Assembly (NCBI GenBank): GCA_029261995.1
Contig: JAJDAF010000060.1
Coordinates: forward strand, 21,963-85,962
Length of the DNA stretch: 64,000 bases
Reading direction: 5' to 3'
Source of the DNA: Candidatus Zhuqueibacterota bacterium
GTDB taxonomy: Bacteria; Zhuqueibacterota; Zhuqueibacteria; Oceanimicrobiales; Oceanimicrobiaceae
The notes under the pieces were generated by a model. That model saw nothing but the letters and a program-made list of their open reading frames with translations. It was not told the origin of the DNA and searched no databases. Position 1 is the first letter of the stretch, and each line of letters opens with the position of its first letter. Made by a program: the position numbers and the translations under genes. Shown here piece after piece: positions 3,453 through 19,519 of the stretch.

Positions 3453-5030
3453 TTGAGGGCGAGAAAGATCATGGACCGAGAAAGCATGCTCAACACCCTT
3501 CGCGACCAGTCCACGATTTGCGATTTTATCGTGATTGGCGGCGGCGCCACGGGCTTGGGCACCGCAGTTGAAGCCGCCTCGCGGGGCTACCGTACGCTGT
3601 TGCTTGAACAGCATGATTTTGCTAAAGGCACTTCCAGTCGCAGCACCAAGCTCATCCATGGCGGTGTCCGCTATTTGCAGCAGGGCAATATTTCGCTGGT
3701 GTTGGAAGCGCTGCACGAACGCGGCCTGCTGATTAATAATGCGCCGCACCTGGTTCGGAACCAGGCGTTTATCGTGCCCAATTATGACTGGTGGGAAGCC
3801 CCGTTCTACGGCATCGGCATGAAAGTCTATGACATCCTTGCCGGCAAGCTCGGACTCGGACCATCGAAAAATCTTTCGAAGCAAGAGACTCTGGAACGTA
3901 TTCCGACCCTGGAGCCGGAGGGGCTGCGCGGCGGCGTTATTTATTACGATGGCCAGTTCGATGACGCCCGGCTGGCAGTCAACCTGGCACAGACGCTGAT
4001 GGACCTGGGGGGCACGCCGCTCAACTACATCAAAGTCACTGGCCTGCTGAAGGAGAAAGGCATGACCAATGGTGTGGTGGCGGTTGAGCAAGAAACCGGC
4101 GAACAGTTTGAAATCCGCAGCCAGGTGGTGGTGAATGCAACCGGCGTGTTTACCGATGGCATTCGGCGGCTGGATGATCCTGCCGCGCACGAACTGGTGG
4201 CCCCGAGTCAGGGCGTCCACATCATTCTGGACAAAGCTTTTTTGCCCGGAGATTCCGCCGTGATGGTGCCGCACACCGATGACGGCCGTGTCCTGTTTGC
4301 TGTTCCGTGGCATAATCGGGTCATCGTCGGGACCACAGACACGCCGGTGGACAAGCCTGAACTCGAGCCGCGCGCCCTGCCCGAAGAGGTCGACTTCATC
4401 CTGAAGCACGCAGCGCAGTACCTCACCCACGACCCGACTCCGGATGATGTTCTGAGCGTTTTTGCCGGGCTGCGGCCGCTGGTGAAAGCGGAGGACAGCG
4501 AAAACACGGCGGCGCTATCGAGAGACCATTCGCTCATCGTCTCCGGTTCCGGGCTGGTGACCATCGCCGGTGGCAAGTGGACCACCTACCGCAAGATGGG
4601 CCAGGACACGGTGGACCGCGCCGCCATGGTGGCCTGCCTGGATGAGCGCAAAAGTCTTACCGAAACCATGAACATTCACGGCTGGCGCGCCAACGTCGAT
4701 GAAAGCGATCCGTTGCGTTTCTATGGCACCGATGCCGATGCCATTCGCAAACTCCCGCTTGAGGACAGCGATCTCGCCGCACAGCTTGACCCGCGGCTGC
4801 CCTACACACAGGCCGAGGTGGTCTGGGCCGCGCGCAGCGAAATGGCGCGCACGGTTGAAGATGTGCTCGCCCGCCGCACCCGTGCCCTGCTGCTCGACGC
4901 GCGCGCCAGCATCGACGCCGCGCCGCTGGTGGCCGAGTTGCTGGCGGCTGAATTGGACAAAGACGAGCAATGGGAGCAGGCTCAGGTTGCTGCCTTCCAA
5001 AAGGTAGCCGCAGGTTACTTGCTGAGCTAG
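3453..5030 (+). CDS. glpD: FAD-dependent glycerol-3-phosphate dehydrogenase
   Basis: 525 aa. N-terminal DFIVIGGGATGLGTAVEAASRG dinucleotide-binding motif. Sits directly downstream of glpK. The true start may be the internal M at 3471. Confidence 0.85.
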   Translation: MRARKIMDRESMLNTLRDQSTICDFIVIGGGATGLGTAVEAASRGYRTLLLEQHDFAKGTSSRSTKLIHGGVRYLQQGNISLVLEALHERGLLINNAPHLVRNQAFIVPNYDWWEAPFYGIGMKVYDILAGKLGLGPSKNLSKQETLERIPTLEPEGLRGGVIYYDGQFDDARLAVNLAQTLMDLGGTPLNYIKVTGLLKEKGMTNGVVAVEQETGEQFEIRSQVVVNATGVFTDGIRRLDDPAAHELVAPSQGVHIILDKAFLPGDSAVMVPHTDDGRVLFAVPWHNRVIVGTTDTPVDKPELEPRALPEEVDFILKHAAQYLTHDPTPDDVLSVFAGLRPLVKAEDSENTAALSRDHSLIVSGSGLVTIAGGKWTTYRKMGQDTVDRAAMVACLDERKSLTETMNIHGWRANVDESDPLRFYGTDADAIRKLPLEDSDLAAQLDPRLPYTQAEVVWAARSEMARTVEDVLARRTRALLLDARASIDAAPLVAELLAAELDKDEQWEQAQVAAFQKVAAGYLLS

Positions 5031-5153: not shown

Positions 5154-6518
5154 TCACAGTTTGGTTGCTTGCACTCGAATGCTCTGTTCGAACGCTTCCA
5201 TGTCAAAGATGAGCAGCTCAGAAATCAGATCTTCGCGGCCAATTTCCCGAAATACGTAAGGAGGAAATGATCGAAATCGCAGCCGGACGCTGAGTGTAAG
5301 CTCACGCGTTCCAACGGGCGCTGACATCGTGAACTCTGATCTCCTGGACTCCAACGCAGGGATAGTGTTGTTCTCAACTGAAGCGGCTTCCCAGAAAAAC
5401 AGGGTTTCCCTGCCAGTTGCATCGATCGTTTTGCCGTTGTATAGAACCAGGGAACTGTCCTCAGAGATGTGTCCGGCTGCGACAAAATCGCTATGATAAT
5501 TACGAAGGTCGCCATTGTCATCCAGGAGTCCCGTGCTGAAATACGATGCGCCCGTAGCGTGGTCTGTAAGGTTCACTTCAAGCCACATCTGCCGTTCGAA
5601 GATGGCGCCGGTGGGCAGATTGTGACCTGCCTGGCTGTTATTTATCGTCACGCTTACCGTGAATATCTTGCTGGGCTCGACTTGCATCGGCGCCTCAACC
5701 GTCATCTCTGCTGAATTCTGGAGCAACTGCTGCACGCTGGCAATCGTCTCCTCTCTGCCGGGAAAATCTACCAGTGGATAATCAACTCCGACAAATGTAT
5801 GTTTGTGCAGGTTGTCGCGCACAGGTCCGGTTGTAGCGGCTTTGCCGGAATAAGTCGGCATGTGGCAAGTCTGGCATTCAATCCCGGGTAGTACATAAGA
5901 GCTTAAGGACCACTCGAGATTGGTGGTTTCAATATCAAAGGATTTGTCCGGAGATTTTACCTGGTGGCATGTGCTACAAAAATGCGAATCCTTGTACCGG
6001 CCGCTAAACTCCGATTCGTGAAAAGCATTTGCTACCGGGTCAGCGATTGGGCCTCTCCGGATGCCATCGACATGAAACGAAGTCCCTCCCTCACCTCTTT
6101 TGATATCGCCGAGCGTGTGACAGACATCACAACTGATGCCTGCGCCGGCTAAGGGTGTGAGATTCTCAAAGCGGAACCCCGGCTTCGTTTCTCCCATCAA
6201 GGAGCCGAACGGTGTGTGGCACTTCATGCAAAACTGGTCAAGCTCGTGGTTGGTGCGCTCCTGGCCAATCTTGCTGAGCGTTTGAAAAATCGGATCCGTT
6301 ATGGCGTAAGCGTGCATGGATTGCTGCCACTCAGCGTAGTGATTGGGGTGGCAACTGCCGCAGACAGCCGGATCAGATACATTGTCGCGAATCAACTGCG
6401 CCTGCTCTTGCGTCTCGTCCTGATTGGAATTGTTGACGTCGTGCTCGCAAGCAGTGCTGAGAAAGATTGATGATAGGATTAGTGCTGTGAGAAACGTTTC
6501 TGCTGATTTTTTCATGTG
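5154..6518 (-). CDS. penta-heme c-type cytochrome, secreted
   Basis: Five CxxCH motifs (CGSCH, CMKCH, CDVCH, CSTCH, CQTCH). N-terminal signal/TM MKKSAETFLTALILSSIFLSTA. The ORF extends to 6602, but the signal-peptide Met is at about 6518. Confidence 0.7.
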   Translation of the reverse strand, partial: HMKKSAETFLTALILSSIFLSTACEHDVNNSNQDETQEQAQLIRDNVSDPAVCGSCHPNHYAEWQQSMHAYAITDPIFQTLSKIGQERTNHELDQFCMKCHTPFGSLMGETKPGFRFENLTPLAGAGISCDVCHTLGDIKRGEGGTSFHVDGIRRGPIADPVANAFHESEFSGRYKDSHFCSTCHQVKSPDKSFDIETTNLEWSLSSYVLPGIECQTCHMPTYSGKAATTGPVRDNLHKHTFVGVDYPLVDFPGREETIASVQQLLQNSAEMTVEAPMQVEPSKIFTVSVTINNSQAGHNLPTGAIFERQMWLEVNLTDHATGASYFSTGLLDDNGDLRNYHSDFVAAGHISEDSSLVLYNGKTIDATGRETLFFWEAASVENNTIPALESRRSEFTMSAPVGTRELTLSVRLRFRSFPPYVFREIGREDLISELLIFDMEAFEQSIRVQATKL

Positions 6519-6931
6519 TGGCCCCCGTTGTTTTTTCATCGATGTGGTGTTGATAACCGCAAATGCTATGCCGGACTGGCTTCTGGTAAAAACCGTTTGC
6601 AAGAGCGATTGCTTTGAGGCTAAACAGATTTGTTTGTCCTAAACTTATCTTCATACCAATTTGGGATGTTGTCTCTTGAAAGGACATTTGTTCAGGAACG
6701 TATTACGTAGTCGAAACACGTCTACGCACGCGCAATTTCCTTGAAACCCCTCTGCTTCCGTCCACGCACTACCGTGAACGACCCCGTTGTCATCTGATGT
6801 TGGCTTCTGAACAGAATTCTTGACAATCCCGTGATTTTTCCGTTTGTTTGGACGCTCCACAGTGCTCTTCACCTAGTGGCGTCAAGGAAATAAGGTCGGG
6901 GGAGTTCAAAGTAATCCGTGGATGAATACCT

Positions 6932-8976: not shown

Positions 8977-10743
8977 ATGTTAAATAGAAGGAAACAAGTG
9001 GGAGAGCCTGTTCTGACCAACGCGCAGACCGACGAACCGAGTCAGCAGAAGCCGCTGCGGCTGTGGCCCGGCGTGGTCATCGTGGCGCTGCAGTGGCTGG
9101 CCAGGTTTGTCGTCCCTATTTTAGTGCCTGATGTTTTTCAGTATGCGGTGATGGTGGGCGTTTTCGGTGGTGGGTTGGCTATCATTGTATGGTGGGCGTT
9201 CTTCAGCCGTGCACATTGGTCCGAGCGTTGGGGCGCCGTCGTCCTGATGATAGTCGCGCTGGTCGCGACACCGCTCATCCTCCATGAGTCGATTGCAACG
9301 GGGGCGATGGGTATGCTGTTCATCATCCTCGCCATCCCGGTCCTGGACCTCGCCTTCGTCGTCTGGGCGGTGGTCAGCCGTCACCTCCCTGACGGACTTC
9401 GGCGCGCGACACTGGTTGCGACAATCCTGCTCGCGTGCGCAGGATGGGCGCTCGTCCAGACCGGTGGCTTTGGCGGCAATCTCGATAACGATTTTTCTTG
9501 GCGCTGGGCTGAGACTCCTGAGGAGCAGCTCCTGGCCCAAACCGGTGACGAGCCGATGGTCAGGCCTTCGACTCCTGCGGCAATGGAGACAGAGGCCGAC
9601 TGGCCCGGCTTTCTCGGACCCAATCGTGACGGCGTCATCCGTGGCGTGCGCATCGAGACCGACTGGTCCGCGTCGCCGCCGGTCGAGTTGTGGCGCCGGC
9701 CGATCGGGCCGGGCTGGTCGTCCTTCGCGGTCCGCGGCGACCTGCTCTACACCCAGGAGCAGCGCGGTGATGACGAGGTCGTCGCCTGCTATAAGGTATC
9801 CACCGGCGAGCCGGTGTGGAGACATAGCGACGCGGCCCGGTTCTGGGAGTCGAATGCCGGCGCCGGTCCGCGCGGAACCCCGACCCTCAGCAACGGTCGC
9901 GTGTACACATTGGGTGCGACCGGAATCCTGAATGTGCTCGATGCCCGTGACGGCGCTGTCGTGTGGTCGCGCAACGCGGCTTCCTATACCAAGGCAAAGC
10001 TGCCAATCTGGGGCTTCTCAGGCTCGCCGTTGGTGACGGATAGCCTGGTCATCGTCGCCACCTCCAGCGCACTCGTCGCCTACGAACTCGACACCGGCAA
10101 TCCACGCTGGTTCGTGCCGGACAGCGGCGACGGCTACAGCTCGCCACAGCTATTGACGATCGACGGAGTCACGCAGATCCTGCAGCTAAGCGGCGATGGT
10201 CTGACCAGTGTCACGCCGGGCGATGGCACGTTGCTCTGGCAGCACTCCTGGTCCGGCTATCCCATCGTACAGCCAGCCATGACCGCGGATGGCGATCTCC
10301 TGATCAGCGTCAACGCGGAAAGCGGCATGCGCCGTCTCTCGGTGGCACAGGGAGCCGGCGGATGGACCATCGAAGAGCGTTGGACCTCGCGCGGACTAAA
10401 GCCCTATTACAGCGACTTCGCTGTTCATGATGGCCATGCCTTCGGCTTCGACGGCAGTATTCTCGCGTGCATCGACCTCGAGGATGGCAAGCGCAAGTGG
10501 AAGGGCGGACGCTACGGCGCCGGCCAGCTAGTGCTGCTGGCAGACCAAGGCTTGCTGCTGGTGCTGTCGGAGAAGGGTGAACTGGCACTGGTCAATGCGG
10601 CTTCCGACAAGTTCACGGAGTTGGCACGCTTCCCGGCCATCGAGGGCAAAACCTGGAACCACCCGGTGCTGGTCAACGACATCCTGTTGGTTCGCAACGC
10701 CCAGGAGATGGCTGCATTCCGTCTGGCTCTCGCGGGCGGCTGA
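8977..10743 (+). CDS. membrane-anchored PQQ-repeat beta-propeller protein (paralog 1)
   Basis: 588 aa. About 5 N-terminal TM helices, then PQQ/BamB-like propeller repeats (LLYTQEQRGDDEVVACY, GRVYTLGATGILNVLDARDGAVVW, DGHAFGFDGSILACIDLEDGKRKW). Confidence 0.75.
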   Translation: MLNRRKQVGEPVLTNAQTDEPSQQKPLRLWPGVVIVALQWLARFVVPILVPDVFQYAVMVGVFGGGLAIIVWWAFFSRAHWSERWGAVVLMIVALVATPLILHESIATGAMGMLFIILAIPVLDLAFVVWAVVSRHLPDGLRRATLVATILLACAGWALVQTGGFGGNLDNDFSWRWAETPEEQLLAQTGDEPMVRPSTPAAMETEADWPGFLGPNRDGVIRGVRIETDWSASPPVELWRRPIGPGWSSFAVRGDLLYTQEQRGDDEVVACYKVSTGEPVWRHSDAARFWESNAGAGPRGTPTLSNGRVYTLGATGILNVLDARDGAVVWSRNAASYTKAKLPIWGFSGSPLVTDSLVIVATSSALVAYELDTGNPRWFVPDSGDGYSSPQLLTIDGVTQILQLSGDGLTSVTPGDGTLLWQHSWSGYPIVQPAMTADGDLLISVNAESGMRRLSVAQGAGGWTIEERWTSRGLKPYYSDFAVHDGHAFGFDGSILACIDLEDGKRKWKGGRYGAGQLVLLADQGLLLVLSEKGELALVNAASDKFTELARFPAIEGKTWNHPVLVNDILLVRNAQEMAAFRLALAGG

Positions 10744-11179: not shown

Positions 11180-12961
11180 ATGTTGAAGAGAGCAAAACAA
11201 GTGGGGGAGTCTGATCTAGCCAACGTCCGGAGTGACGAAGCGACTCGACAGAGGCCACTCCGGCTTCTGCCTGGCGTGGTTATCGTGGCGCTGCAGTGGC
11301 TGGCCAGGTTTGCCGTCCCTTGGGTTGTGCCAGGGGCCTGGGCTTTAGGATTCGGGATATCTGGTGGATTCGTCGGCGGGTTGGCTATTGTCGTGTGGTG
11401 GGCGTTCTTCAGCCGGGCGCCTCGGTCGGAGCGCTGGGGCGCCGTCGTCCTGATGATAGTCGCGATGACCGTGACACCGCTCATCCTGCATGAGTCGATT
11501 GCGACGGCGCAGATGGGGATGACGTTCTTCATCTACGCCATTCCGGTGTTGAGCCTTGCCTTCGTCATCTGGGCGGTGGCCAGCCGTAGCCTTTCTGACG
11601 GACTTCGACGCGCGACAATGGTCGCGACCATCCTGCTTGCGTGCGGAGTGTGGGCGCTCGTGCGAACCGATGGCATGACCAGCGACATCGGTCATGATTT
11701 CGCGTGGCGCTGGGCGGAGACTGCCGAGCAGCGGCTCCTGGCCCAGGCCGGCGACGAGTTGACGGCGCTGCCATCGCCTCCGGCAGCAGCGGAGACAGCA
11801 GCCGACTGGCCCGGCTTTCGCGGACGCAATCGCGACGGCCACATCTCCGGCGTGCGCATTGAGACCGACTGGTCTGCATCGCCCCCGGTTGAGCTGTGGC
11901 GCCGGCCGGTCGGACCGGGCTGGTCGTCCTTCGCGGTCAGCAGCGACCTGCTTTACACCCAGGAGCAGCGCGGTGACGACGAGGTGGTGGCCTGCTACAA
12001 CGTGACCAGCGGCGAGCCGGTGTGGAGACACCGCGATGCCGCTCGCTTCCTGGGCGCGGCTGCCAACCCTGGTCCACGCGCGACGCCGACCCTGAGCGCC
12101 GGTCGCGTATACACCTTCGGTGCGACCGGAATCCTGAACGCGCTCGACGCTCGTGACGGCGCCGTCCTGTGGACACGCAATGCGGCCTCCGATACCGGCG
12201 AGAAGGTCCCGGTCTGGGGTTTTGCGAGTTCGCCGTTGGTGGTCGAAGACCTCGTTATCGTTCACGCCGGCGCACTGGTCGCCTACGACCTCGCCACCGG
12301 TGAGCCGCGCTGGTTCGGTCCGGCCGGTGGTGAGAGCTACAGCTCGCCACATCTATTGACCATCGCTGGCGTTGCGCAGGTCCTGCAACTGAGCGGAAAC
12401 GGCGCCATCAGCGTCTCGCCGGCCGATGGCGCGTTGCTTTGGGAGCACCCGTGGCCGGGTGGCAGCATCGTTCAGCCGGCCCTGACCGCGGACGACAACA
12501 TCCTGATCAGCGCCGAGGAAAATGGCACGCGCCGCATCGCGGTGACGCATGGACCCGCGGGATGGACTGTCGAAGAACGCTGGACCTCGCGCCGGCTGAA
12601 GTCCAGCTTCAACGACTTCGTGGTTCATAATGACCATGCCTTCGGTTTCGACGGCAGTATTCTCGCGTGCATCGACCTCGTGGACGGCAAGCGCAAGTGG
12701 AAGGGCGGACGCTACGGCCACGGCCAGCTCGTCCTGTTGGCCGACCAGGAGGTACTGCTGGTGGTGTCGGAGAAGGGCGAGCTGGCGCTGGTCGCGGCAA
12801 CCCCTGACCAGTTCACGGAGCTGGCGCGCTTCCCGGCCATCGAGGGCAAGACCTGGAACCACCCGGTGCTGGTCAACGACCTCCTGCTGGTCCGCAACGG
12901 CCAGGAGATGGTGGCGTTACGGCTGTCGCTCGCGGCTGACCTGAGTCAAAGTGGTCATTGA
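11180..12961 (+). CDS. membrane-anchored PQQ-repeat beta-propeller protein (paralog 2)
   Basis: 593 aa and about 75% identical to 8977..10743 along its full length. The roughly 90-nt leaders are also related (catgaacc.aa..ttcaaa...ggagga). Confidence 0.75.
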   Translation: MLKRAKQVGESDLANVRSDEATRQRPLRLLPGVVIVALQWLARFAVPWVVPGAWALGFGISGGFVGGLAIVVWWAFFSRAPRSERWGAVVLMIVAMTVTPLILHESIATAQMGMTFFIYAIPVLSLAFVIWAVASRSLSDGLRRATMVATILLACGVWALVRTDGMTSDIGHDFAWRWAETAEQRLLAQAGDELTALPSPPAAAETAADWPGFRGRNRDGHISGVRIETDWSASPPVELWRRPVGPGWSSFAVSSDLLYTQEQRGDDEVVACYNVTSGEPVWRHRDAARFLGAAANPGPRATPTLSAGRVYTFGATGILNALDARDGAVLWTRNAASDTGEKVPVWGFASSPLVVEDLVIVHAGALVAYDLATGEPRWFGPAGGESYSSPHLLTIAGVAQVLQLSGNGAISVSPADGALLWEHPWPGGSIVQPALTADDNILISAEENGTRRIAVTHGPAGWTVEERWTSRRLKSSFNDFVVHNDHAFGFDGSILACIDLVDGKRKWKGGRYGHGQLVLLADQEVLLVVSEKGELALVAATPDQFTELARFPAIEGKTWNHPVLVNDLLLVRNGQEMVALRLSLAADLSQSGH

Positions 12962-12965
12962 AACG

Positions 12966-13079
12966 TCCTTTTAACAAGGAGTCTCACTGAGTCAGCGGAG
13001 GTTCACGGAGCACTTGCTTGCAGAGACAGGAACTCCGTGTTCCTCCGGTTTCTCCGCGGCTCCGTGTTCAAAGCAAACC
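12966..13079. repeat. about 110-nt structured repeat, copy 1
   Basis: tccttttaacaaggagtctcactgagtcagcggaggttcacggagcacttgcttgcagagac...ctccgtgttcctccggtttctccgcggctccgtgtt, containing nested inverted repeats (ttcacggag / ctccgtgtt). Confidence 0.55.
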
Positions 13080-13171
13080 TGACTGTCCATTAAATATTCT
13101 GCCAGGGATGGCGGAAGTTGAGTTTGTCAGCCGCTCATCTTGTCAAGCTTGTCTCGGTTTGTTCGAAAGAT

Positions 13172-13279
13172 TGAAACATCCTTTTGACACGGAGCCACTG
13201 AGTCAACGGAGTTTCACGGAGAAAGTGCTTGCAGAGACGACAACTCCGTGTTTCTCCGTTTGCTCCGCGGCTCCGTGTT
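13172..13279. repeat. about 110-nt structured repeat, copy 2
   Basis: Direct repeat of 12966..13079 at about 85% identity. Confidence 0.55.
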
Positions 13280-13385
13280 GAGACCTGACCGGTACGCCTG
13301 CCCACCCGGGAAACAGTAGAACTGCTTCGCCGCAAGCCGGCGTCGCATTGACATAAGCGCGGAATGTTAGCTGCCAGGAGGACTG

Positions 13386-13751
13386 ATGAAGTACGAGCCA
13401 ATCAACTTTAGAGATAAGCTGTCAATGTTCGACCAGCATTGGTCACCAAGAGTAATCGCAGAAATGAACGATTACCAGTTCAAGCTGGTGAAAGTTTCCG
13501 GGGAATTTGTTTGGCATGCTCATCCCGAAACAGATGAGGTTTTCATTGTCATCGAGGGCAGCCTTGATATTGAATTTCGTGACGGCAAGGTCACCCTGCA
13601 AAGCGGAGAAATGTTCGTAATCCCGAGGGGTGTTGAACATAAGCCTGTAGCAGAGCGTGAATGTAAAATGATGCTGGTTGAACCAAAAGGTGTGGTAAAT
13701 ACGGGGGATGCCGGCGGTGAGCTAACAGCAGAGAATAATGTTTGGGTATAA
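13386..13751 (+). CDS. cupin-domain protein
   Basis: 121 aa with a two-His cupin motif region ([18 protein letters not shown]...[14 protein letters not shown]). AGGAGG RBS 7 nt upstream. AT-richer than the flanking DNA. Confidence 0.7.
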
Positions 13752-13861
13752 AGGAGTCAAACAAAGCACTGCACACGGATTCGCTCGCTCTCCGGTGAAT
13801 GCGGAGTTATGAAACACGAGCTGCAAACGATGCCGGGCAGCGGAAAAATCATGAAATAGGC

Positions 13862-14113
13862 CCGATGCGCGATGAAATAAGTCTGACGCGGTATGGGAAA
13901 AGCCTGATGCGGCATGAGATAAGCCTGATGCGCTATGGGAAAAGTCTGATGCGGCATGAGAAAAGTCCGATGCGCCATGAGAAAAGTCTGATGCGGTATG
14001 GGAAAAGCCTGATGTGCAATAGGCAAAGTCTGATGCGGCATGAGATAAGCCTGATGTGCCATGAGAAAAGTTCGATGTGTCATGAGAAAAGTCTGATGCG
14101 CGATGAGAGCCCG
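13862..14113. repeat. tandem array of 12 units of 21 bp (consensus CTGATGCGGCATGAGAAAAGC)
   Basis: The units are read directly from the sequence. There are no spacers, so this is not a CRISPR array. Both strands keep open frames through it, giving heptad repeats MRHE(I/K)SL (+) or ASDFSH(A/T) (-). Confidence 0.7.
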
Positions 14114-14537
14114 AGTTTGTAGGCTGAGCATGTTTCAGGAGCGCAATTTTCTGCTTGATATGCCCAATAGACTTTTCTATCTTCTTGTCACTATCTGAAG
14201 CGTCTCCAACTAAACCATTCATGACCAGCCGAATTCGGGTGGGAGAGGATGCAGGCTCCTAATTGACATCCACGACAGAAGCAGACGTTGCTATGGCAGG
14301 CCTAACGCAGAATGCAAAGCTGATCCGTGCCATAGTCGCTCACCACGGAGATGCCATGCTCGACACATGGTTATTGGACCGTAACATGTCCAGTAACAAA
14401 GGCGACAGCGTTCCGAATTGCGAGAGCAATTCATTGATTTGAAGGTCGTTAGGACAATCTGTGACGACTGGTTTATCGGACATGATGTGGCCGAAATCTT
14501 GGATCCAATAAACTAGGTTGGGTTACTAGGACAACTT

Positions 14538-14999
14538 ATGGATATTCCAGCAGACTTAGATGTTTTAAAAGGTGATATTTCTCGCGAGATACAGAGATTG
14601 CGGAAAAGTCGTTCTAACAACAAATATAAGGCTGCCAATATTGCAATCTATACAGGAGCGGTAGCTGCAATAACAACCGTGTGTATTGGGATCGGAACTT
14701 TCGTAGGAGAAGAGTTAGGAAGGGTTTTTGGGTTGATATCATTGGTAACGAGCGCATCCATATCTGTAGTATCGGCTTGGGACGGAATATTTAACCATAA
14801 GAAGCTTTGGGTTAGCATCTCCCTTACGTTGAATCAGTTTTATGAACTTGATACTGATATTTGCCACCTTGAGGCCCAAGGTGATATCGACCAAGAGACA
14901 AGAAACAAGCTATACATCCGGTTTAAAAAGATCTTAGCAGATTCCGACAGAAGGTGGTATCAAATACGAGATGCAGGTGTCGAGACAATAGAATCCTAA
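14538..14999 (+). CDS. small two-transmembrane (2TM) protein, SLATT-like
   Basis: 153 aa: N-terminal helix, two TM helices (AANIAIYTGAVAAITTVCIGIGTF and GLISLVTSASISVVSAW), C-terminal helix. This matches the SLATT domain layout. AT-rich. Confidence 0.45.
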   Translation: MDIPADLDVLKGDISREIQRLRKSRSNNKYKAANIAIYTGAVAAITTVCIGIGTFVGEELGRVFGLISLVTSASISVVSAWDGIFNHKKLWVSISLTLNQFYELDTDICHLEAQGDIDQETRNKLYIRFKKILADSDRRWYQIRDAGVETIES

Positions 15000-15099
15000 C
15001 AAAATGCGCAGGAAAAAATACTCGCTGTGGCTCGCATTTTTTCTGTGAGCACGACTAGTTGCTACGGTTCTAACATGTGGCTCAAGCACGAACTGTAAT

Positions 15100-16182
15100 T
15101 TGGAAAGGACGCATATTTTTATGGCAACAAGAATATCAATGTTCAATCATAAGGGTGGGGTAAGTAAGACCACCACCACCTTCAATCTTGGCTGGATGCT
15201 TGCGTCGCGAGGTAACAAGGTGGTTCTTGTTGATGCTGATCCCCAGTGTAACTTGACGGGTCTCGTATTGGGTTATGAAGGGATCAATGGTTTTGAAAAA
15301 TTCTATGAAAATTATGCGGAGCAGAACATAAAGGCGGGTTTGGCCCCTGCGTTCGAATCACGGCCAGAGCCGATTGAGGCTATCGAGTGCATTGAGGTCA
15401 AAGGTGTAAATGGGCTGAGCCTCATACCAGGGCATATCAATTTTTCTGAATACGAAGTGACACTCGGCATCTCTCAGGAACTATCCGGATCAATCCAAGC
15501 ACTCCAGAATCTACCAGGTTCTTTATCACACTTCATCGATAAAACCGCAAAAACTCAAGGCGCTGATTATGTTCTCATCGACATGAATCCAAGTCTTGGT
15601 GCAATAAATCAGAACCTATTAATGACGAGTCACTACTTTCTAGTTCCAACCGCTCCTGACTATTTCTCTAGAATGGCCATTGACTCTCTGAGCACCGTCT
15701 TACCTAAGTGGCATGCTTGGGCGGAAAAGGCAAAATCTATTGCCGTGCTGCAAAACGCGGCATATCCATTTCCGAAAACTATCCCCAAAATGCTGGGAAC
15801 TGTGATACAAAAATATAGACCTAGAAAGGGTAAAGCAACTGAAGGTTTCCAAGTCTGGATAGATGAAATTAACAAGTTGGTTTCTGAAAAGTTGGTGCCA
15901 GCTCTAAGGAAGAACAACATGGTTCTCGCGGACAAAGACTATGGCAACATTAGTGATGATTTTAGTTCCACTTACTGTCTTGCACAAATCCCAGACTTTA
16001 ATACACTCATTGCGACGTCACAGTCTCATCGAACACCAGTTTTTGCGCTAACTGACGACATGTTTCGCCATGTCGGTAGTGTTTTGGAGCAGGATAGAGT
16101 CAAAAAAAGGGAATTCAACACGATTTTCACTGAATTGGCAAAGAAAATCGCGACTTTGATAGAAAATGCAGCAGGCAATTGA
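15100..16182 (+). CDS. ParA/MinD-family P-loop ATPase
   Basis: Deviant Walker A NHKGGVSKTTTTFNLG, then VVLVDADPQCNLT. 360 aa. The start may be the M at 15121. Confidence 0.8.
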   Translation: MERTHIFMATRISMFNHKGGVSKTTTTFNLGWMLASRGNKVVLVDADPQCNLTGLVLGYEGINGFEKFYENYAEQNIKAGLAPAFESRPEPIEAIECIEVKGVNGLSLIPGHINFSEYEVTLGISQELSGSIQALQNLPGSLSHFIDKTAKTQGADYVLIDMNPSLGAINQNLLMTSHYFLVPTAPDYFSRMAIDSLSTVLPKWHAWAEKAKSIAVLQNAAYPFPKTIPKMLGTVIQKYRPRKGKATEGFQVWIDEINKLVSEKLVPALRKNNMVLADKDYGNISDDFSSTYCLAQIPDFNTLIATSQSHRTPVFALTDDMFRHVGSVLEQDRVKKREFNTIFTELAKKIATLIENAAGN

Positions 16183-16768
16183 CCAATTCCGCAGTAATAT
16201 TCAAAATATCCGAGCACTGTCATCCACAATTGTTGCTGTAAATAGAATGACGACAGAAGTGGTTGACCTCTCTGATATACTTAGAGCCGAGATTGTATTG
16301 GCGGTTAGTGCTCTGGATCATTTTGTTCATGAATTTGTTAGATTAGGAATGCTTGATATTTATTCGAGATCTCGAAGGCAGACAGATTCGTATCTAAGGT
16401 TTCAGGTGGCTTTGAGAGCAGCACATTTAGGTGAAACCAATCCGGCAGAGAATGGGTGGCTTGACGAATGCATCCGAGAACGTCATTCATGGCAGAGTTT
16501 TCAGGAACCCGACAAGATCGCAGATGCAATAAGATTGGTTTCCGAAATTAGGTTGTGGGATTCAGTTGGCCGAGAACTGGATAAAACGGGAGCTGATGTC
16601 AAGGCAGCACTGAAATTGATTATAGATAGAAGGAATAAGATTGCCCACGAGGCGGATATGGATCCTACCAATCCTGGTGTTCGCTGGCCAATCAACCAGA
16701 GGATGACAGAACAAGCAGTCAACAACGTTGAAGCGATAGTTGAAGCGATATACAAGGTAGCATCCTAG
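16166..16768 (+). CDS. putative HEPN-superfamily protein (Rx4H motif)
   Basis: 200 aa. Overlaps the ParA gene end by 17 nt, which suggests translational coupling. It carries DRRNKIAHE, matching the HEPN Rx4-6H RNase signature, and is predicted to be all-helical. Confidence 0.45.
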   Translation: MQQAIDQFRSNIQNIRALSSTIVAVNRMTTEVVDLSDILRAEIVLAVSALDHFVHEFVRLGMLDIYSRSRRQTDSYLRFQVALRAAHLGETNPAENGWLDECIRERHSWQSFQEPDKIADAIRLVSEIRLWDSVGRELDKTGADVKAALKLIIDRRNKIAHEADMDPTNPGVRWPINQRMTEQAVNNVEAIVEAIYKVAS

Positions 16769-17012
16769 ATACTCGCTAACATTGGCTCGCATGATGAATC
16801 GGGGAATGCCTTCCCCAGAGCGAGCCAGATGTTCAACCACGAGCCGGACGATCATTCGATTCTCAAGGTTGAACTCTTGCAGCGGGAGATAGCTTGGCGG
16901 GGTGAGCATGTGGGCAGCAAATCTTCCACGAGCAGGAGACAATGTCTAGATCAAAATGCGGAACATCGAATAACTGTCAGGTTACTAAAGAAACATTATG
17001 GATTCATAGACT

Positions 17013-17726
17013 ATGTCAAGTAGTGGGTACGAAATTCTCGCTAGCGAATACTACGATCATGCTCATATTACTTCAAGAAATTTTGATTCTGCAACAGCGA
17101 ACTTCTGCAAAGAGTTTGCCTTTCCTTTAATCCCGAAAGGTGTTATCGTTGAACTAGGTGCCGGAAGAGGGCGAACCCGTGAATATTGCCGCATTCCAGA
17201 ATCGCGCATAATTCAAACTGATTTATCTTATGGAATGCTGCAACTCAATTCTCGCGAGAATTCTATTGCTAGAGTGCAATGTAGCGCCCTCGAACTACCA
17301 TTTAAGCACTCATCGATGTCTGCCATTACGGCTTTTCTTTACGATCCCTATAATAGGCCAAAACTATATTCAGAAATGCATCGTGTCATGAAAACTGAAG
17401 GAATCTTCATAGGCACGCTGCCCCATCATGTTTGGGGAGAAAGTCTCAGAAATCTTAAGGGCATAGATGCAAACAAAGCTAGAATAATCCGCTTTACCAC
17501 AGACTCAAAGGAATTCGTTGAGATGGATTCCTACTTGATGAACGAAAATGAGATTGCAGATTCATTTCATTCTGCGGGGTTCGGCAAGATTGAATTTCAG
17601 GATTTGTTTTTGCCGAGAGAAATAAAGTGCTCTGATATTTCGCCACACATAGCAGAGGCAGCAAGCTCACAGGAGATATCGCCATATGAATTGCCAATCG
17701 TCACATTTATTCTAGGCTGGAAATGA
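17013..17726 (+). CDS. class I SAM-dependent methyltransferase
   Basis: VIVELGAGRGRT (motif I, glycine-rich loop). 237 aa. Confidence 0.7.
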   Translation: MSSSGYEILASEYYDHAHITSRNFDSATANFCKEFAFPLIPKGVIVELGAGRGRTREYCRIPESRIIQTDLSYGMLQLNSRENSIARVQCSALELPFKHSSMSAITAFLYDPYNRPKLYSEMHRVMKTEGIFIGTLPHHVWGESLRNLKGIDANKARIIRFTTDSKEFVEMDSYLMNENEIADSFHSAGFGKIEFQDLFLPREIKCSDISPHIAEAASSQEISPYELPIVTFILGWK

Positions 17727-17727
17727 A

Positions 17728-18366
17728 ATGAAGAAGAAATACTTGATTTTCTGGGCAACTGAGTTCGCAAGCCTAACAGCGATTTCTATCATCCTTGCAA
17801 AAATCGATTGGTCAATGTACTGGATAGTAATACCAGTTGTCCTTATTCTCACCATGAAAGTGCTCGAGTATCGGTTCTTTCTAGATCAAAAACAAGCCTC
17901 AATTCAATCACAGCTCAAGCTCCTTGTAAAACTTTTGAGATCAGAGGGTGTGTCCAGCATTAGATGCACCTATCACGTTCCGATATCAGACTCGAAATTC
18001 CTTCAGGTATTTGACTATATTCCCAACGGTGGCGGTGGAAAGAGAAAATTCAACACAACTAGAGGAATTATCGCAAAAGCTTTCCAAGAAAAGACCCCCC
18101 TTGTTGAGAATTTTGATGGCAGCCACGACTTTCAGAAGCGCATGGTTACACAGTACAATTACAGTACCTCCGAACTAGGACATAGAACTCCAGATCGCAG
18201 GTCGTATATTTGCTACCCAGTTATTGATGAAAACCACTATGTAATGGGAATGATATATTGTGATTCATCAGTGCCCCATACTTTTGAATTGGATGGAGGT
18301 GGCAATCAGAAAATTTCAAAGATGATAATTGACGCTAGCGAAGTTATTCGCGACAACATGATATAG
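17728..18366 (+). CDS. 2TM membrane protein with a C-terminal globular (possibly GAF-like) domain
   Basis: Starts 1 nt after the methyltransferase stop. Two N-terminal TM helices, then an amphipathic helix, then about 130 aa containing GGGKRKF...YICYPVIDENHYVMGMIYCDSS. Confidence 0.45.
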   Translation: MKKKYLIFWATEFASLTAISIILAKIDWSMYWIVIPVVLILTMKVLEYRFFLDQKQASIQSQLKLLVKLLRSEGVSSIRCTYHVPISDSKFLQVFDYIPNGGGGKRKFNTTRGIIAKAFQEKTPLVENFDGSHDFQKRMVTQYNYSTSELGHRTPDRRSYICYPVIDENHYVMGMIYCDSSVPHTFELDGGGNQKISKMIIDASEVIRDNMI

Positions 18367-19475
18367 TGTGTCTAACTAGCAGCTCAACAGACGGCTGGCC
18401 CGGAAATGATGAAAAGACTTATGTGGTATCGGTAAGAAGCGACGTTCCACGCAAGATGTCGACATTGAAAAAACTTCTCATTGGACTAGGCGCCGTTGCA
18501 ATTATAACACTTATCGCCTTTTCCTGGTTTGTCATGTCCTTGTTTTCTGAGCAGGATATGTCAGAAGTTCCTGACCACTATCCGTTTAAATCGGCAGAGG
18601 CCAAAGAACAATATCTGCACCATTATGACAAGAGAGCGCGAGCGTGGCCTGTTGCTTCGGAATCCAGGGTCGTGGAAACATCTTATGGCCGGACTTTTGT
18701 TCGCATCAGCGGTCCGGTAAATGCGCCACCTTTGGTCTTGCTACCTTCTACCAGCGCTTCATCTCTTATCTGGATACCCAATATTCAGACACTATCCGTT
18801 CACTACAGAGTCTATGCTGTTGACAACATTTACGACTTTGGCCGCAGTGTCAATACTCGCAACATCAAGAGTTCTGATGACATGACGCACTGGCTCGATG
18901 AGCTGTTTACTGCGCTTACTCTCGGAGACAGTATCAATCTTATGGGGCTTTCATTTGGTGGCTGGCTGACAAGCCAATACACACTTGCTCATCCAACCAG
19001 GCTCAACAAGGTCGTATGGCTCGCCCCGGTGGCGACAATCCATGATATTCCGGCAGAGTGGGCGTGGCGTGGCATGCTCTCCGCGTTGCCCTATCGTTAC
19101 TTCATGACGAAATTCATGGTAGAATGGCTTTTTGAAGATTTGTGCAAGAAGACTGATGAGCATAGTCTGGAACAGATAGATGATTTGGTTGATGATGCCA
19201 TGCTCGGCCTCAAATGTTTTAAATTCCGGATGCCAATCACACCCTCTGTCTTGACGGATAATGAATTACAGAGCATCAAGGCGCCAACGCTCTTCTTGGT
19301 CGGTGAAAATGAGAAACTCTATCCCGCAAAAAAAGCTGTTGAACGTCTCAACACATTGGCGCCGCAGATACAAACGGAAATCATACCGAATGCCGGCCAC
19401 GACTTAACAATCGTTCAGGCAGAATTGGTAAATCGAAGGGTTCTTGATTTCCTGATGACAACTAATCCAGAATAA
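18366..19475 (+). CDS. membrane-anchored alpha/beta-fold hydrolase
   Basis: GLSFGGW nucleophile elbow (GxSxG). TM anchor LLIGLGAVAIITLIAF. The probable true start is the M at 18456. Confidence 0.7.
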   Translation: MCLTSSSTDGWPGNDEKTYVVSVRSDVPRKMSTLKKLLIGLGAVAIITLIAFSWFVMSLFSEQDMSEVPDHYPFKSAEAKEQYLHHYDKRARAWPVASESRVVETSYGRTFVRISGPVNAPPLVLLPSTSASSLIWIPNIQTLSVHYRVYAVDNIYDFGRSVNTRNIKSSDDMTHWLDELFTALTLGDSINLMGLSFGGWLTSQYTLAHPTRLNKVVWLAPVATIHDIPAEWAWRGMLSALPYRYFMTKFMVEWLFEDLCKKTDEHSLEQIDDLVDDAMLGLKCFKFRMPITPSVLTDNELQSIKAPTLFLVGENEKLYPAKKAVERLNTLAPQIQTEIIPNAGHDLTIVQAELVNRRVLDFLMTTNPE

Positions 19476-19519
19476 GCGCGGCTGCCCTTGACGACCATGC
19501 TTAACTACGAAACCAAGAT

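Follow-up and report, generated by a model that had tools for sequence, protein, structure and literature searches.

A ParA/MinD-type ATPase gene coupled to a RiboL-PSP-family HEPN gene: a candidate two-gene conflict module from Candidatus Zhuqueibacterota

HEPN ribonucleases (RNases) are central effectors of prokaryotic immunity, Cas13, Csm6, PrrC, RnlA and HepT being among them, and the key question for each HEPN family is how the RNase is kept silent and then released. This question is raised by a pair of genes in a stretch of 64,000 nucleotides (nt) from Candidatus Zhuqueibacterota bacterium (assembly GCA_029261995.1, contig JAJDAF010000060.1, positions 21,963 to 85,962 of the forward strand), referred to here as the window. 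In this stretch a gene encoding a ParA/MinD-type (SIMIBI) ATPase of 353 amino acids (aa) (15121..16182, + strand) runs into a gene for a HEPN-superfamily protein of 200 aa (16166..16768, + strand), which belongs to the RiboL-PSP-HEPN family and is predicted to be a metal-independent RNase effector. Based on the evidence described below, the pair is probably a self-contained, horizontally mobile two-gene toxin–antitoxin or abortive-infection module in which the ATPase serves as the neutraliser. Such a pair would add a ParA/MinD-type switch to the controllers already known for HEPN proteins, namely CARF, minimal nucleotidyltransferase (MNT), ATP-binding cassette (ABC) ATPase and STAND, and whether and how a ParA-type switch controls a predicted HEPN RNase is a question worth an experiment.

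A toxin–antitoxin pair composed of ParA/Soj and a HEPN protein of the MAE_18760 family was predicted computationally by Anantharaman et al. (2013, Biol Direct 8:15; PMC3710099), who proposed the ATPase as the antitoxin, acting through a nucleotide-dependent conformational change or phosphorylation. In a table of the same work the entry for RiboL-PSP-HEPN names a fusion to endoRNase L-PSP and an operon with ParB instead of ParA. The pair of the window resembles that of 2013 in that both consist of a ParA/Soj-type SIMIBI ATPase gene and a standalone HEPN protein that keeps Rx4-6H, and differs from it in the family to which Pfam and UniProt assign its HEPN protein, RiboL-PSP-HEPN (PF18735). At E <= 10 an hmmscan of the window HEPN protein returned PF18735 and a weak Swt1 match, with no match to the MAE_28990/MAE_18760 model, and a search seeded from a cyanobacterial HEPN member retrieved only Oscillatoriales proteins named HEPN or RiboL-PSP-HEPN and no Microcystis entries. 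In the literature on RiboL-PSP, ParA–HEPN pairs and Pf-prophage HEPN proteins, no experimental study of the window-type pair or of the 2013 pair was found, and ParA is not mentioned among the validated systems of DefensePredictor. What is known, then, is the ParA–HEPN kind, as a computational prediction; what is new is a RiboL-PSP-HEPN-family member of that predicted kind.

Identity of the two proteins

Both proteins were compared with Pfam under the curated cut-offs, and their AlphaFold2 (AF2) models were compared with solved structures by Foldseek. The upstream protein matched AAA_31 (E 1.8e-29) and CbiA (E 2e-14), whereas of the models of true partition ATPases only the N-terminal parts were matched, with scores far under their curated cut-offs. 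Its deviant Walker A motif, NHKGGVSKTT (residues 9-18; 15145..15174, + strand), contains the signature lysine K11 and the P-loop lysine K16, and N9, H10, K11, G12, G13, V14, K16, T17 and T18 were each at least 97% conserved across 77 partner ATPases; D38 and D40 of Walker A' (in DADPQCN) and D154 of Walker B were also conserved, with 62 to 77 orthologs aligned. The AF2 model (predicted local distance difference test, pLDDT, 89.3; predicted template modelling score, pTM, 0.91) had 3pg5 as its best structural match, followed by Soj, ParA, DNA-bound pNOB8 ParA, McdA and MinD (E 6e-14 to 1e-8, probability 1.00), and by sequence the closest solved relatives were again 3pg5, over the full length (E 5.7e-21), and then pNOB8 ParA. 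The 3pg5 entry is DIP2308 of Corynebacterium diphtheriae, an uncharacterized ParA-like protein from structural genomics, which is similar over the full length including the C-terminal extension, at an identity to the window ATPase of only ~22-25%. The window ATPase exceeds minimal ParAs by ~100 residues, and its last part is a long helix (319-352).

Pfam family, deviant Walker A motif and ParA/Soj/MinD fold agree with the ParA-like ATPase that had been proposed in the first-pass annotation, a description of the window made from its letters alone, and the protein is a ParA/MinD-type deviant-Walker-A ATPase with complete A, A' and B motifs. That annotation had given the pair the range 15100-16768. 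The longest open reading frame (ORF) does open at 15100, at a TTG, but the supported start is the ATG at 15121, to which both the public gene call, of 353 aa, and the homologs, whose N-termini read M-x-[KR]-x-I-x-x-F-N-H-K-G-G, point.

The downstream protein matched Pfam PF18735 (HEPN_RiboL-PSP) near end-to-end, with residues 12-197 aligned to positions 4-187 of the 191 in the profile (E 3.7e-10; 40.4 bits vs a cut-off of 28.4), and every listed HEPN homolog has a precomputed match to the same family. The catalytic determinants of HEPN RNases are an arginine, a histidine and a polar residue after the arginine, typically N, D or H (PMC3710099). In the window protein the corresponding residues are R156, H161 and N157, located in RRNKIAHEAD (16628..16657, + strand) together with the flanking invariant E162 and D164; Rx4H itself is R156-N-K-I-A-H161 (nt 16631-16648). 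Conservation was followed in alignments of 30 and 67 close homologs and of 114 diverse cluster representatives, which are 30-51% identical to the window protein. RRNxxAHEAD was invariant in the 30 and near-invariant in the 67 close homologs, and in the 114 representatives R156, H161 and D164 were conserved at 100% and N157 at 93%. R-[ND]-x3-H was retained by 123 of 124 full-length representatives, and RRNKIAHEAD was present in 73 of the 78 locus-encoded HEPN proteins described in the next section. According to a rough estimate a bare Rx4H would occur by chance in a 200-aa protein with a probability of ~0.2; the motif of the window stands above chance because R156 and H161 are invariant in the three alignments and because the PF18735 match is near end-to-end. 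Beyond the motif, R40, S48, D51, H55 and W131 were at least 98% conserved in the 114 representatives (D51 98%, H55 99%), D51 and H55 being invariant in close homologs. These two residues form, with E56 and R59, a second conserved patch on helix 2 (SALDHFVHEFVR; 16316..16342, + strand), which may be equivalent to the upstream acidic 'Ex3[KR]' element of HEPN proteins (PMC3710099).

The AF2 model of the HEPN protein is all-helical (pLDDT 92.7), and its top Foldseek matches were mostly HEPN/HepT structures, including 7bxo, 6m6w, 7ae8 and 8xdj, none of which was significant (best E 0.45). The best viral structural match, likewise non-significant, is a protein annotated as MAE-28990/MAE-18760-like HEPN, and a profile search of the Protein Data Bank with the HEPN family gave chance coiled-coil matches only. 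A lack of the helical HEPN fold, which the first-pass annotation had named as a reason to drop its proposal of a HEPN-like protein with Rx4H, was thus not observed, although the matches that point to HEPN are weak; loss of the Rx4H residues in homologs, the other such reason, is excluded by the alignments. Based on the PF18735 match above the cut-off and the conserved residues, the downstream protein belongs, in its sequence features, to the HEPN superfamily and has a conserved R-N-x3-H motif of the catalytic type.

Coupling, co-inheritance and spread of the pair

A scan of one genome per species returned 394 HEPN relatives, and loci were counted in the best 80 of these 394, which span Chloroflexota, Acidobacteriota, Planctomycetota, Cyanobacteria, Alpha-, Beta- and Gammaproteobacteria, Bacteroidota, Nitrospirota, Desulfobacterota, Verrucomicrobiota, Spirochaetia and others. 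A full-length ATPase homolog (41-68% identity) was found immediately upstream of the HEPN gene in 78 of the 80 genome loci, and also in 7 of 7 phage, plasmid and viral loci. The pairing had been described as unusual, a view that is contradicted by these counts, by the ParA/Soj–HEPN prediction of 2013 and by PrrC and RloC, which make the control of a HEPN RNase by an NTPase an established theme. The two exceptions among the 80 loci are L032, with an insertion of the insertion sequence (IS) type, and L051, with an ATPase remnant. In L032 (2061-6191) the last ~45 residues of the ATPase have given way to the insertion, which is 2.5 kb long, has two further genes besides an IS1595/ISXO2-like transposase and stands between the ATPase and an intact HEPN gene.

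In the window the two genes overlap by 17 nt (16166..16182, + strand), the HEPN ATG at 16166 and the ATPase stop TGA at 16180-16182 being read from the sequence. The junction overlaps in 69 of the 78 loci, by 17 nt in 42, by 8 nt in 22 and by 1-20 nt in five, and the overlap is not due to chance, as it recurs in 69 of 78 related loci and in 42 of them with the identical length of 17 nt. These junctions sustain the coupled translation deduced earlier from the overlap, whereas the stoichiometric (1:1) expression that had been deduced along with it is not necessarily implied. The pairwise identities of the ATPases and of the HEPN proteins correlate over 73 loci (Mantel r 0.72, a value that 0 of 2000 permutations reached), and therefore the two proteins are inherited as a unit. 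No third gene is conserved with them, as no family recurs in more than 4-5 of ~76 neighbourhoods. In the window the intergenic RNA folds no better than shuffled sequences (z -0.71), so that no structured leader was detected, and scans for promoters and terminators around the pair gave matches at chance level only.

The pair is common, being present in at least 394 species of many phyla, and compact (~1.65 kb). The HEPN family amounts to 1,663 clusters at 50% identity, 317 of them with E <= 1e-30; all its members are of ~200 aa and standalone, and no domain fusion of the HEPN protein was detected among the best 150 of the 1,663 clusters. The pair persists at ~32% HEPN identity: a Pf1-type prophage, Pseudomonas phage WX-TY and a plasmid of Burkholderia glumae carry it, as do 4 IMG/VR contigs, viral contigs with the pair being rare (only these 4). 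The distribution is patchy across phyla, as horizontal transfer would give. Altogether, the ATPase–HEPN pairing is obligate in the family, ancient and mobile, and the copy of the window is an ordinary intact member. Variations in gene number are also found: a Thiomargarita contig (L057, 4880-8301) carries two tandem ATPase–HEPN pairs, the proteins of the second copy being 47% and 42% identical to those of the window, and a Chloroflexaceae contig (L033, 1153-3921) two successive ATPase paralogs followed by a single HEPN gene. Copies occur in tractable hosts, namely Pf phages of Pseudomonas aeruginosa, B. glumae plasmids and cultured strains of Chitinophaga and Sphingomonas. The labels 'ParA family', 'BcsQ' or 'partition protein' are misleading in genome annotation when the downstream gene encodes a RiboL-PSP-HEPN protein.

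The neighbours of the pair are heterogeneous across related loci. In five loci from different phyla (L003, L008, L009, L015 and L021) the order is hsdM-hsdS-[ATPase-HEPN]-...-hsdR, that is, the pair lies inside a type I restriction-modification (R-M) operon; other copies are situated at the accessory end of Pf filamentous prophages, and on a B. glumae conjugative plasmid the pair occupies an accessory region together with H-NS, DUF932, methyltransferase and ParB-N-terminal-domain genes. In one context an AAA+S8-peptidase pair and an HNH gene stand beside ATPase–HEPN, and HicB antitoxins and resolvases are among the neighbours in other loci. The context points to conflict, not partition. In one Pf1-type prophage (L082; AY324828.1) a gene annotated 'Orf317, similar to Soj' is followed by an unannotated HEPN ORF (4001-4516), whose tblastn match ends at query residue 169 and which may be truncated there.

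Control of the predicted RNase

A mechanism can be proposed in which the ATPase, as a ParA-type protein, would dimerise on ATP, and the HEPN protein would probably be dimeric as well, like other HEPN enzymes, its R156/N157/H161 motifs forming a metal-independent active site whose predicted cleavage would leave 2',3'-cyclic phosphate ends. The ATPase would be translated first, and the overlapping stop and start codons would tie HEPN synthesis to that of the ATPase. In the resting cell the ATPase would keep the RNase inactive by binding it in a nucleotide-dependent conformation, phosphorylation being less likely. A disturbance would break this control, and the free RNase would cut cellular RNA and bring growth to a halt; such a disturbance might be infection by a phage, loss of the element, a change in nucleotide pools or in nucleoid DNA, or a phage protein targeting the ATPase.

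Two known systems are close to this scheme. HepT–MntA (HEPN–MNT, type VII) likewise consists of two genes, for a HEPN toxin (a predicted one in the present case) and for a nucleotide-using enzymatic partner encoded upstream; the partner in HepT–MntA is a minimal nucleotidyltransferase that AMPylates the tyrosine of RX4HXY, whereas here it is a ParA-type ATPase, and the motif continues with E-A-D and has no tyrosine. PrrC and RloC share with the pair a HEPN RNase controlled by a P-loop NTPase, but in these an ABC (Rad50/SbcC-like) NTPase is fused N-terminally to HEPN, in contrast to the standalone 200-aa HEPN protein and the separate ParA/MinD-type protein of the window family. PrrC has its place inside a type I R-M locus, hsdMSR (PMC3710099), a location shared by the five related pairs between hsdS and hsdR; unlike PrrC, most copies of the pair, that of the window included, have no R-M linkage.

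Neutralisation of the HEPN protein by the ATPase is favoured because the regulator comes first, with conserved coupling, and because orphans are asymmetric: the ATPase exists alone, whereas HEPN without an intact ATPase is found only in 3 apparently decayed loci of 87. Full-length homologs of the ATPase subfamily without HEPN (36-37% identity) are encoded by the P22-like Salmonella phages ST160 (NC_014900.1; L097, 3021-4574) and SE1, and also by ST-32 and a Helicobacter prophage (L098, 2504-3571). These orphan phage ATPases are annotated as 'ParA-like partition protein', and their genes could serve in defence on their own or provide phages with neutralisers of host pairs. In the immunity region of ST160 the gene comes right behind the c2 repressor and a DUF3024 gene; no HEPN ORF was found downstream of it, where ~800 nt lack an annotated gene.

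Several observations weigh against a toxin–antitoxin or abortive-infection module with the ATPase as neutraliser. The ATPase is more conserved than the HEPN protein (mean pairwise identity 58% vs 50%), the opposite of typical fast-evolving antitoxins, which suggests that it does more than block a toxin. In three loci, L032 among them, a damaged ATPase stands next to an intact HEPN ORF, although these may be assembly errors or unexpressed genes. Most loci are outside any defence island that can be recognised, housekeeping genes are frequent among the neighbours, and the similarity of the HEPN model to solved HEPN folds lacks statistical significance in the Foldseek comparison described above. 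In PADLOC-DB v2.0.0 the HEPN protein was unmatched, and the ATPase matched PDC-M28B weakly and over the P-loop region only (residues 2-40).

Part of this evidence would fit a reversed control, the main rival reading although a rather unlikely one, in which the HEPN protein is inactive by default and the ATPase is a sensor or activator that licenses the RNase through ATP binding or hydrolysis, the trigger being, for example, foreign or damaged DNA or a phage protein, with the PrrC and RloC ABC-ATPase domains as precedent. The higher conservation of the ATPase and its retention of every catalytic motif of an active enzyme are in line with such a role, and so is the tolerance of an intact HEPN gene beside a damaged ATPase in three loci. 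The closest characterised structural relatives, the pNOB8 ParA–DNA complex and Soj, form ATP dimers that bind DNA non-specifically; the licensing of HEPN nucleases by an NTPase is established, PrrC occurring in type I R-M operons like 5 of these pairs; and the presence of ATPase homologs alone in prophage immunity regions indicates that the ATPase can have a HEPN-independent role. However, a regulator encoded first and followed by a coupled effector is the classical neutraliser-then-toxin arrangement, and orphan HEPN genes are almost absent. It is doubtful, too, that the pair serves partition or positioning, a reading of very low probability in which the ATPase patterns on the nucleoid and the 200-aa protein is a cargo adaptor in place of ParB or McdB, whose motif binds a ligand and does not cleave RNA. 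The pair shares with ParABS and McdAB the ATPase fold, a deviant Walker A with the signature lysine and the gene order standard for par and McdAB, in which a small coupled partner gene comes after that of the ATPase; McdA and plasmid ParAs are among the structural matches; and copies are carried by a plasmid and by filamentous phages that replicate as episomes.

Unlike ParABS and McdAB, however, the pair has no ParB or known adaptor domain and no centromere-like repeats, and its partner protein is a HEPN protein with catalytic-type residues. As the first-pass annotation had stated, neither a ParB-like partner among the window neighbours nor a centromere-like or operator repeat array flanking the window pair was found, and the search for ParB or parS near homologous loci that it had recommended showed no conserved third gene in ~76 loci. 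The majority of copies are found at unrelated places in chromosomes of several megabases, the invariant residues of the partner are exactly the HEPN catalytic set R-N-x3-H, the distribution is patchy and five loci place the pair inside type I R-M operons. On the B. glumae plasmid a partition role for the pair was rejected, because a canonical ParAB, composed of a 214-aa ParA-type ATPase and a ParB/RepB/Spo0J gene, adjoins the replication initiator gene, 42 kb from the pair. Just as improbable would be a housekeeping or stress-response function, with an RNA-processing enzyme accompanied by an ATPase chaperone and no role in conflict. Genes of ordinary metabolism or translation, for example those for IleS, ClpB and BipA, surround the pair in many loci, and some HEPN proteins process rRNA or mRNA (PMC3710099). 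Nonetheless, the pair was present in only 394 of the scanned species genomes, scattered over phyla and without conserved neighbours; its GC content in the window is low with respect to the flanks; copies occur on phages, on a plasmid and inside R-M operons; and tandem duplicate pairs as well as IS-disrupted copies exist.

Beyond the two-gene module with the ATPase as neutraliser, a broader proposal can be put forward tentatively, namely that the pair is a phylum-spanning abortive-infection system in which a ParA-type ATPase has been turned into an immune sensor. Nucleoid DNA and partner peptides are what ParA proteins read out in their normal role. In the proposed system the ATPase might couple the state of the cellular DNA, the nucleotide pools or a phage protein to the release of the HEPN RNase, and the orphan ATPases of temperate phages might work either as separate defences or as decoys by which host pairs are neutralised. 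The same functional class might include the orphan-ParA locus of the Gifsy-1 prophage. There, in the immunity region of the prophage in Salmonella 14028s, STM14_3218 (an orphan ParA-like ATPase), 3219 and 3220 (hypothetical proteins) are needed to produce the RNA-damage signal by which RtcR and its RNA-repair regulon are activated in the SOS response; this signal is believed to be tRNA cleaved with 2',3'-cyclic phosphate ends, and deletion of the region raises phage titres 2-4 fold (PMC9879122). This locus is functionally reminiscent of an ATPase combined with a metal-independent RNase; its ATPase is of 280 aa and its layout has three genes, so that the likeness to the pair is by analogy only.

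The islet of the pair in the window

In the window the pair is part of a low-GC islet of ~6.5 kb (~13000-19500) with 41-45% GC vs 55-65% in the flanks, where ordinary chromosomal genes are found; neither a tRNA gene nor an integrase gene was detected at the ends of the islet. The islet holds a cupin gene, a repeat protein, a SLATT gene, the ATPase–HEPN pair and a run of touching or overlapping genes, namely those for an S-adenosylmethionine (SAM) methyltransferase (17013-17726), a transmembrane (TM)/GAF-like protein (17728-18366) and an alpha/beta hydrolase (18366-19475). Directly upstream of the pair is a solo SLATT-domain gene (14538-14999, + strand), identified by NCBIfam SLATT_1 (56.3 bits vs a cut-off of 41) and a weak DUF4231 match, whose product has two predicted transmembrane helices. 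SLATT is predicted to be the effector that forms pores in conflict systems based on nucleotide signalling, but no cyclase or other partner was found near the gene. SLATT was considered as a third component of the system and rejected, since neither the 80 loci nor the closest relatives contain a homolog of SLATT, of the methyltransferase or of the GAF protein.

Also in this part of the window, the region 13722-14222 contains a 21-nt tandem repeat (14002-14108) of at least 4 copies with 60-80% identity, which overlapping ORFs of the two strands translate into repeats of 7 residues (SDFSHxA, for instance, on the - strand), with no Pfam match. The high-GC flank contains tandem paralogous genes for PQQ/BamB-like beta-propellers of ~590 aa (8977-10743 and 11180-12961, + strand), adjoined by a multihaem cytochrome gene (5157-6602, - strand).

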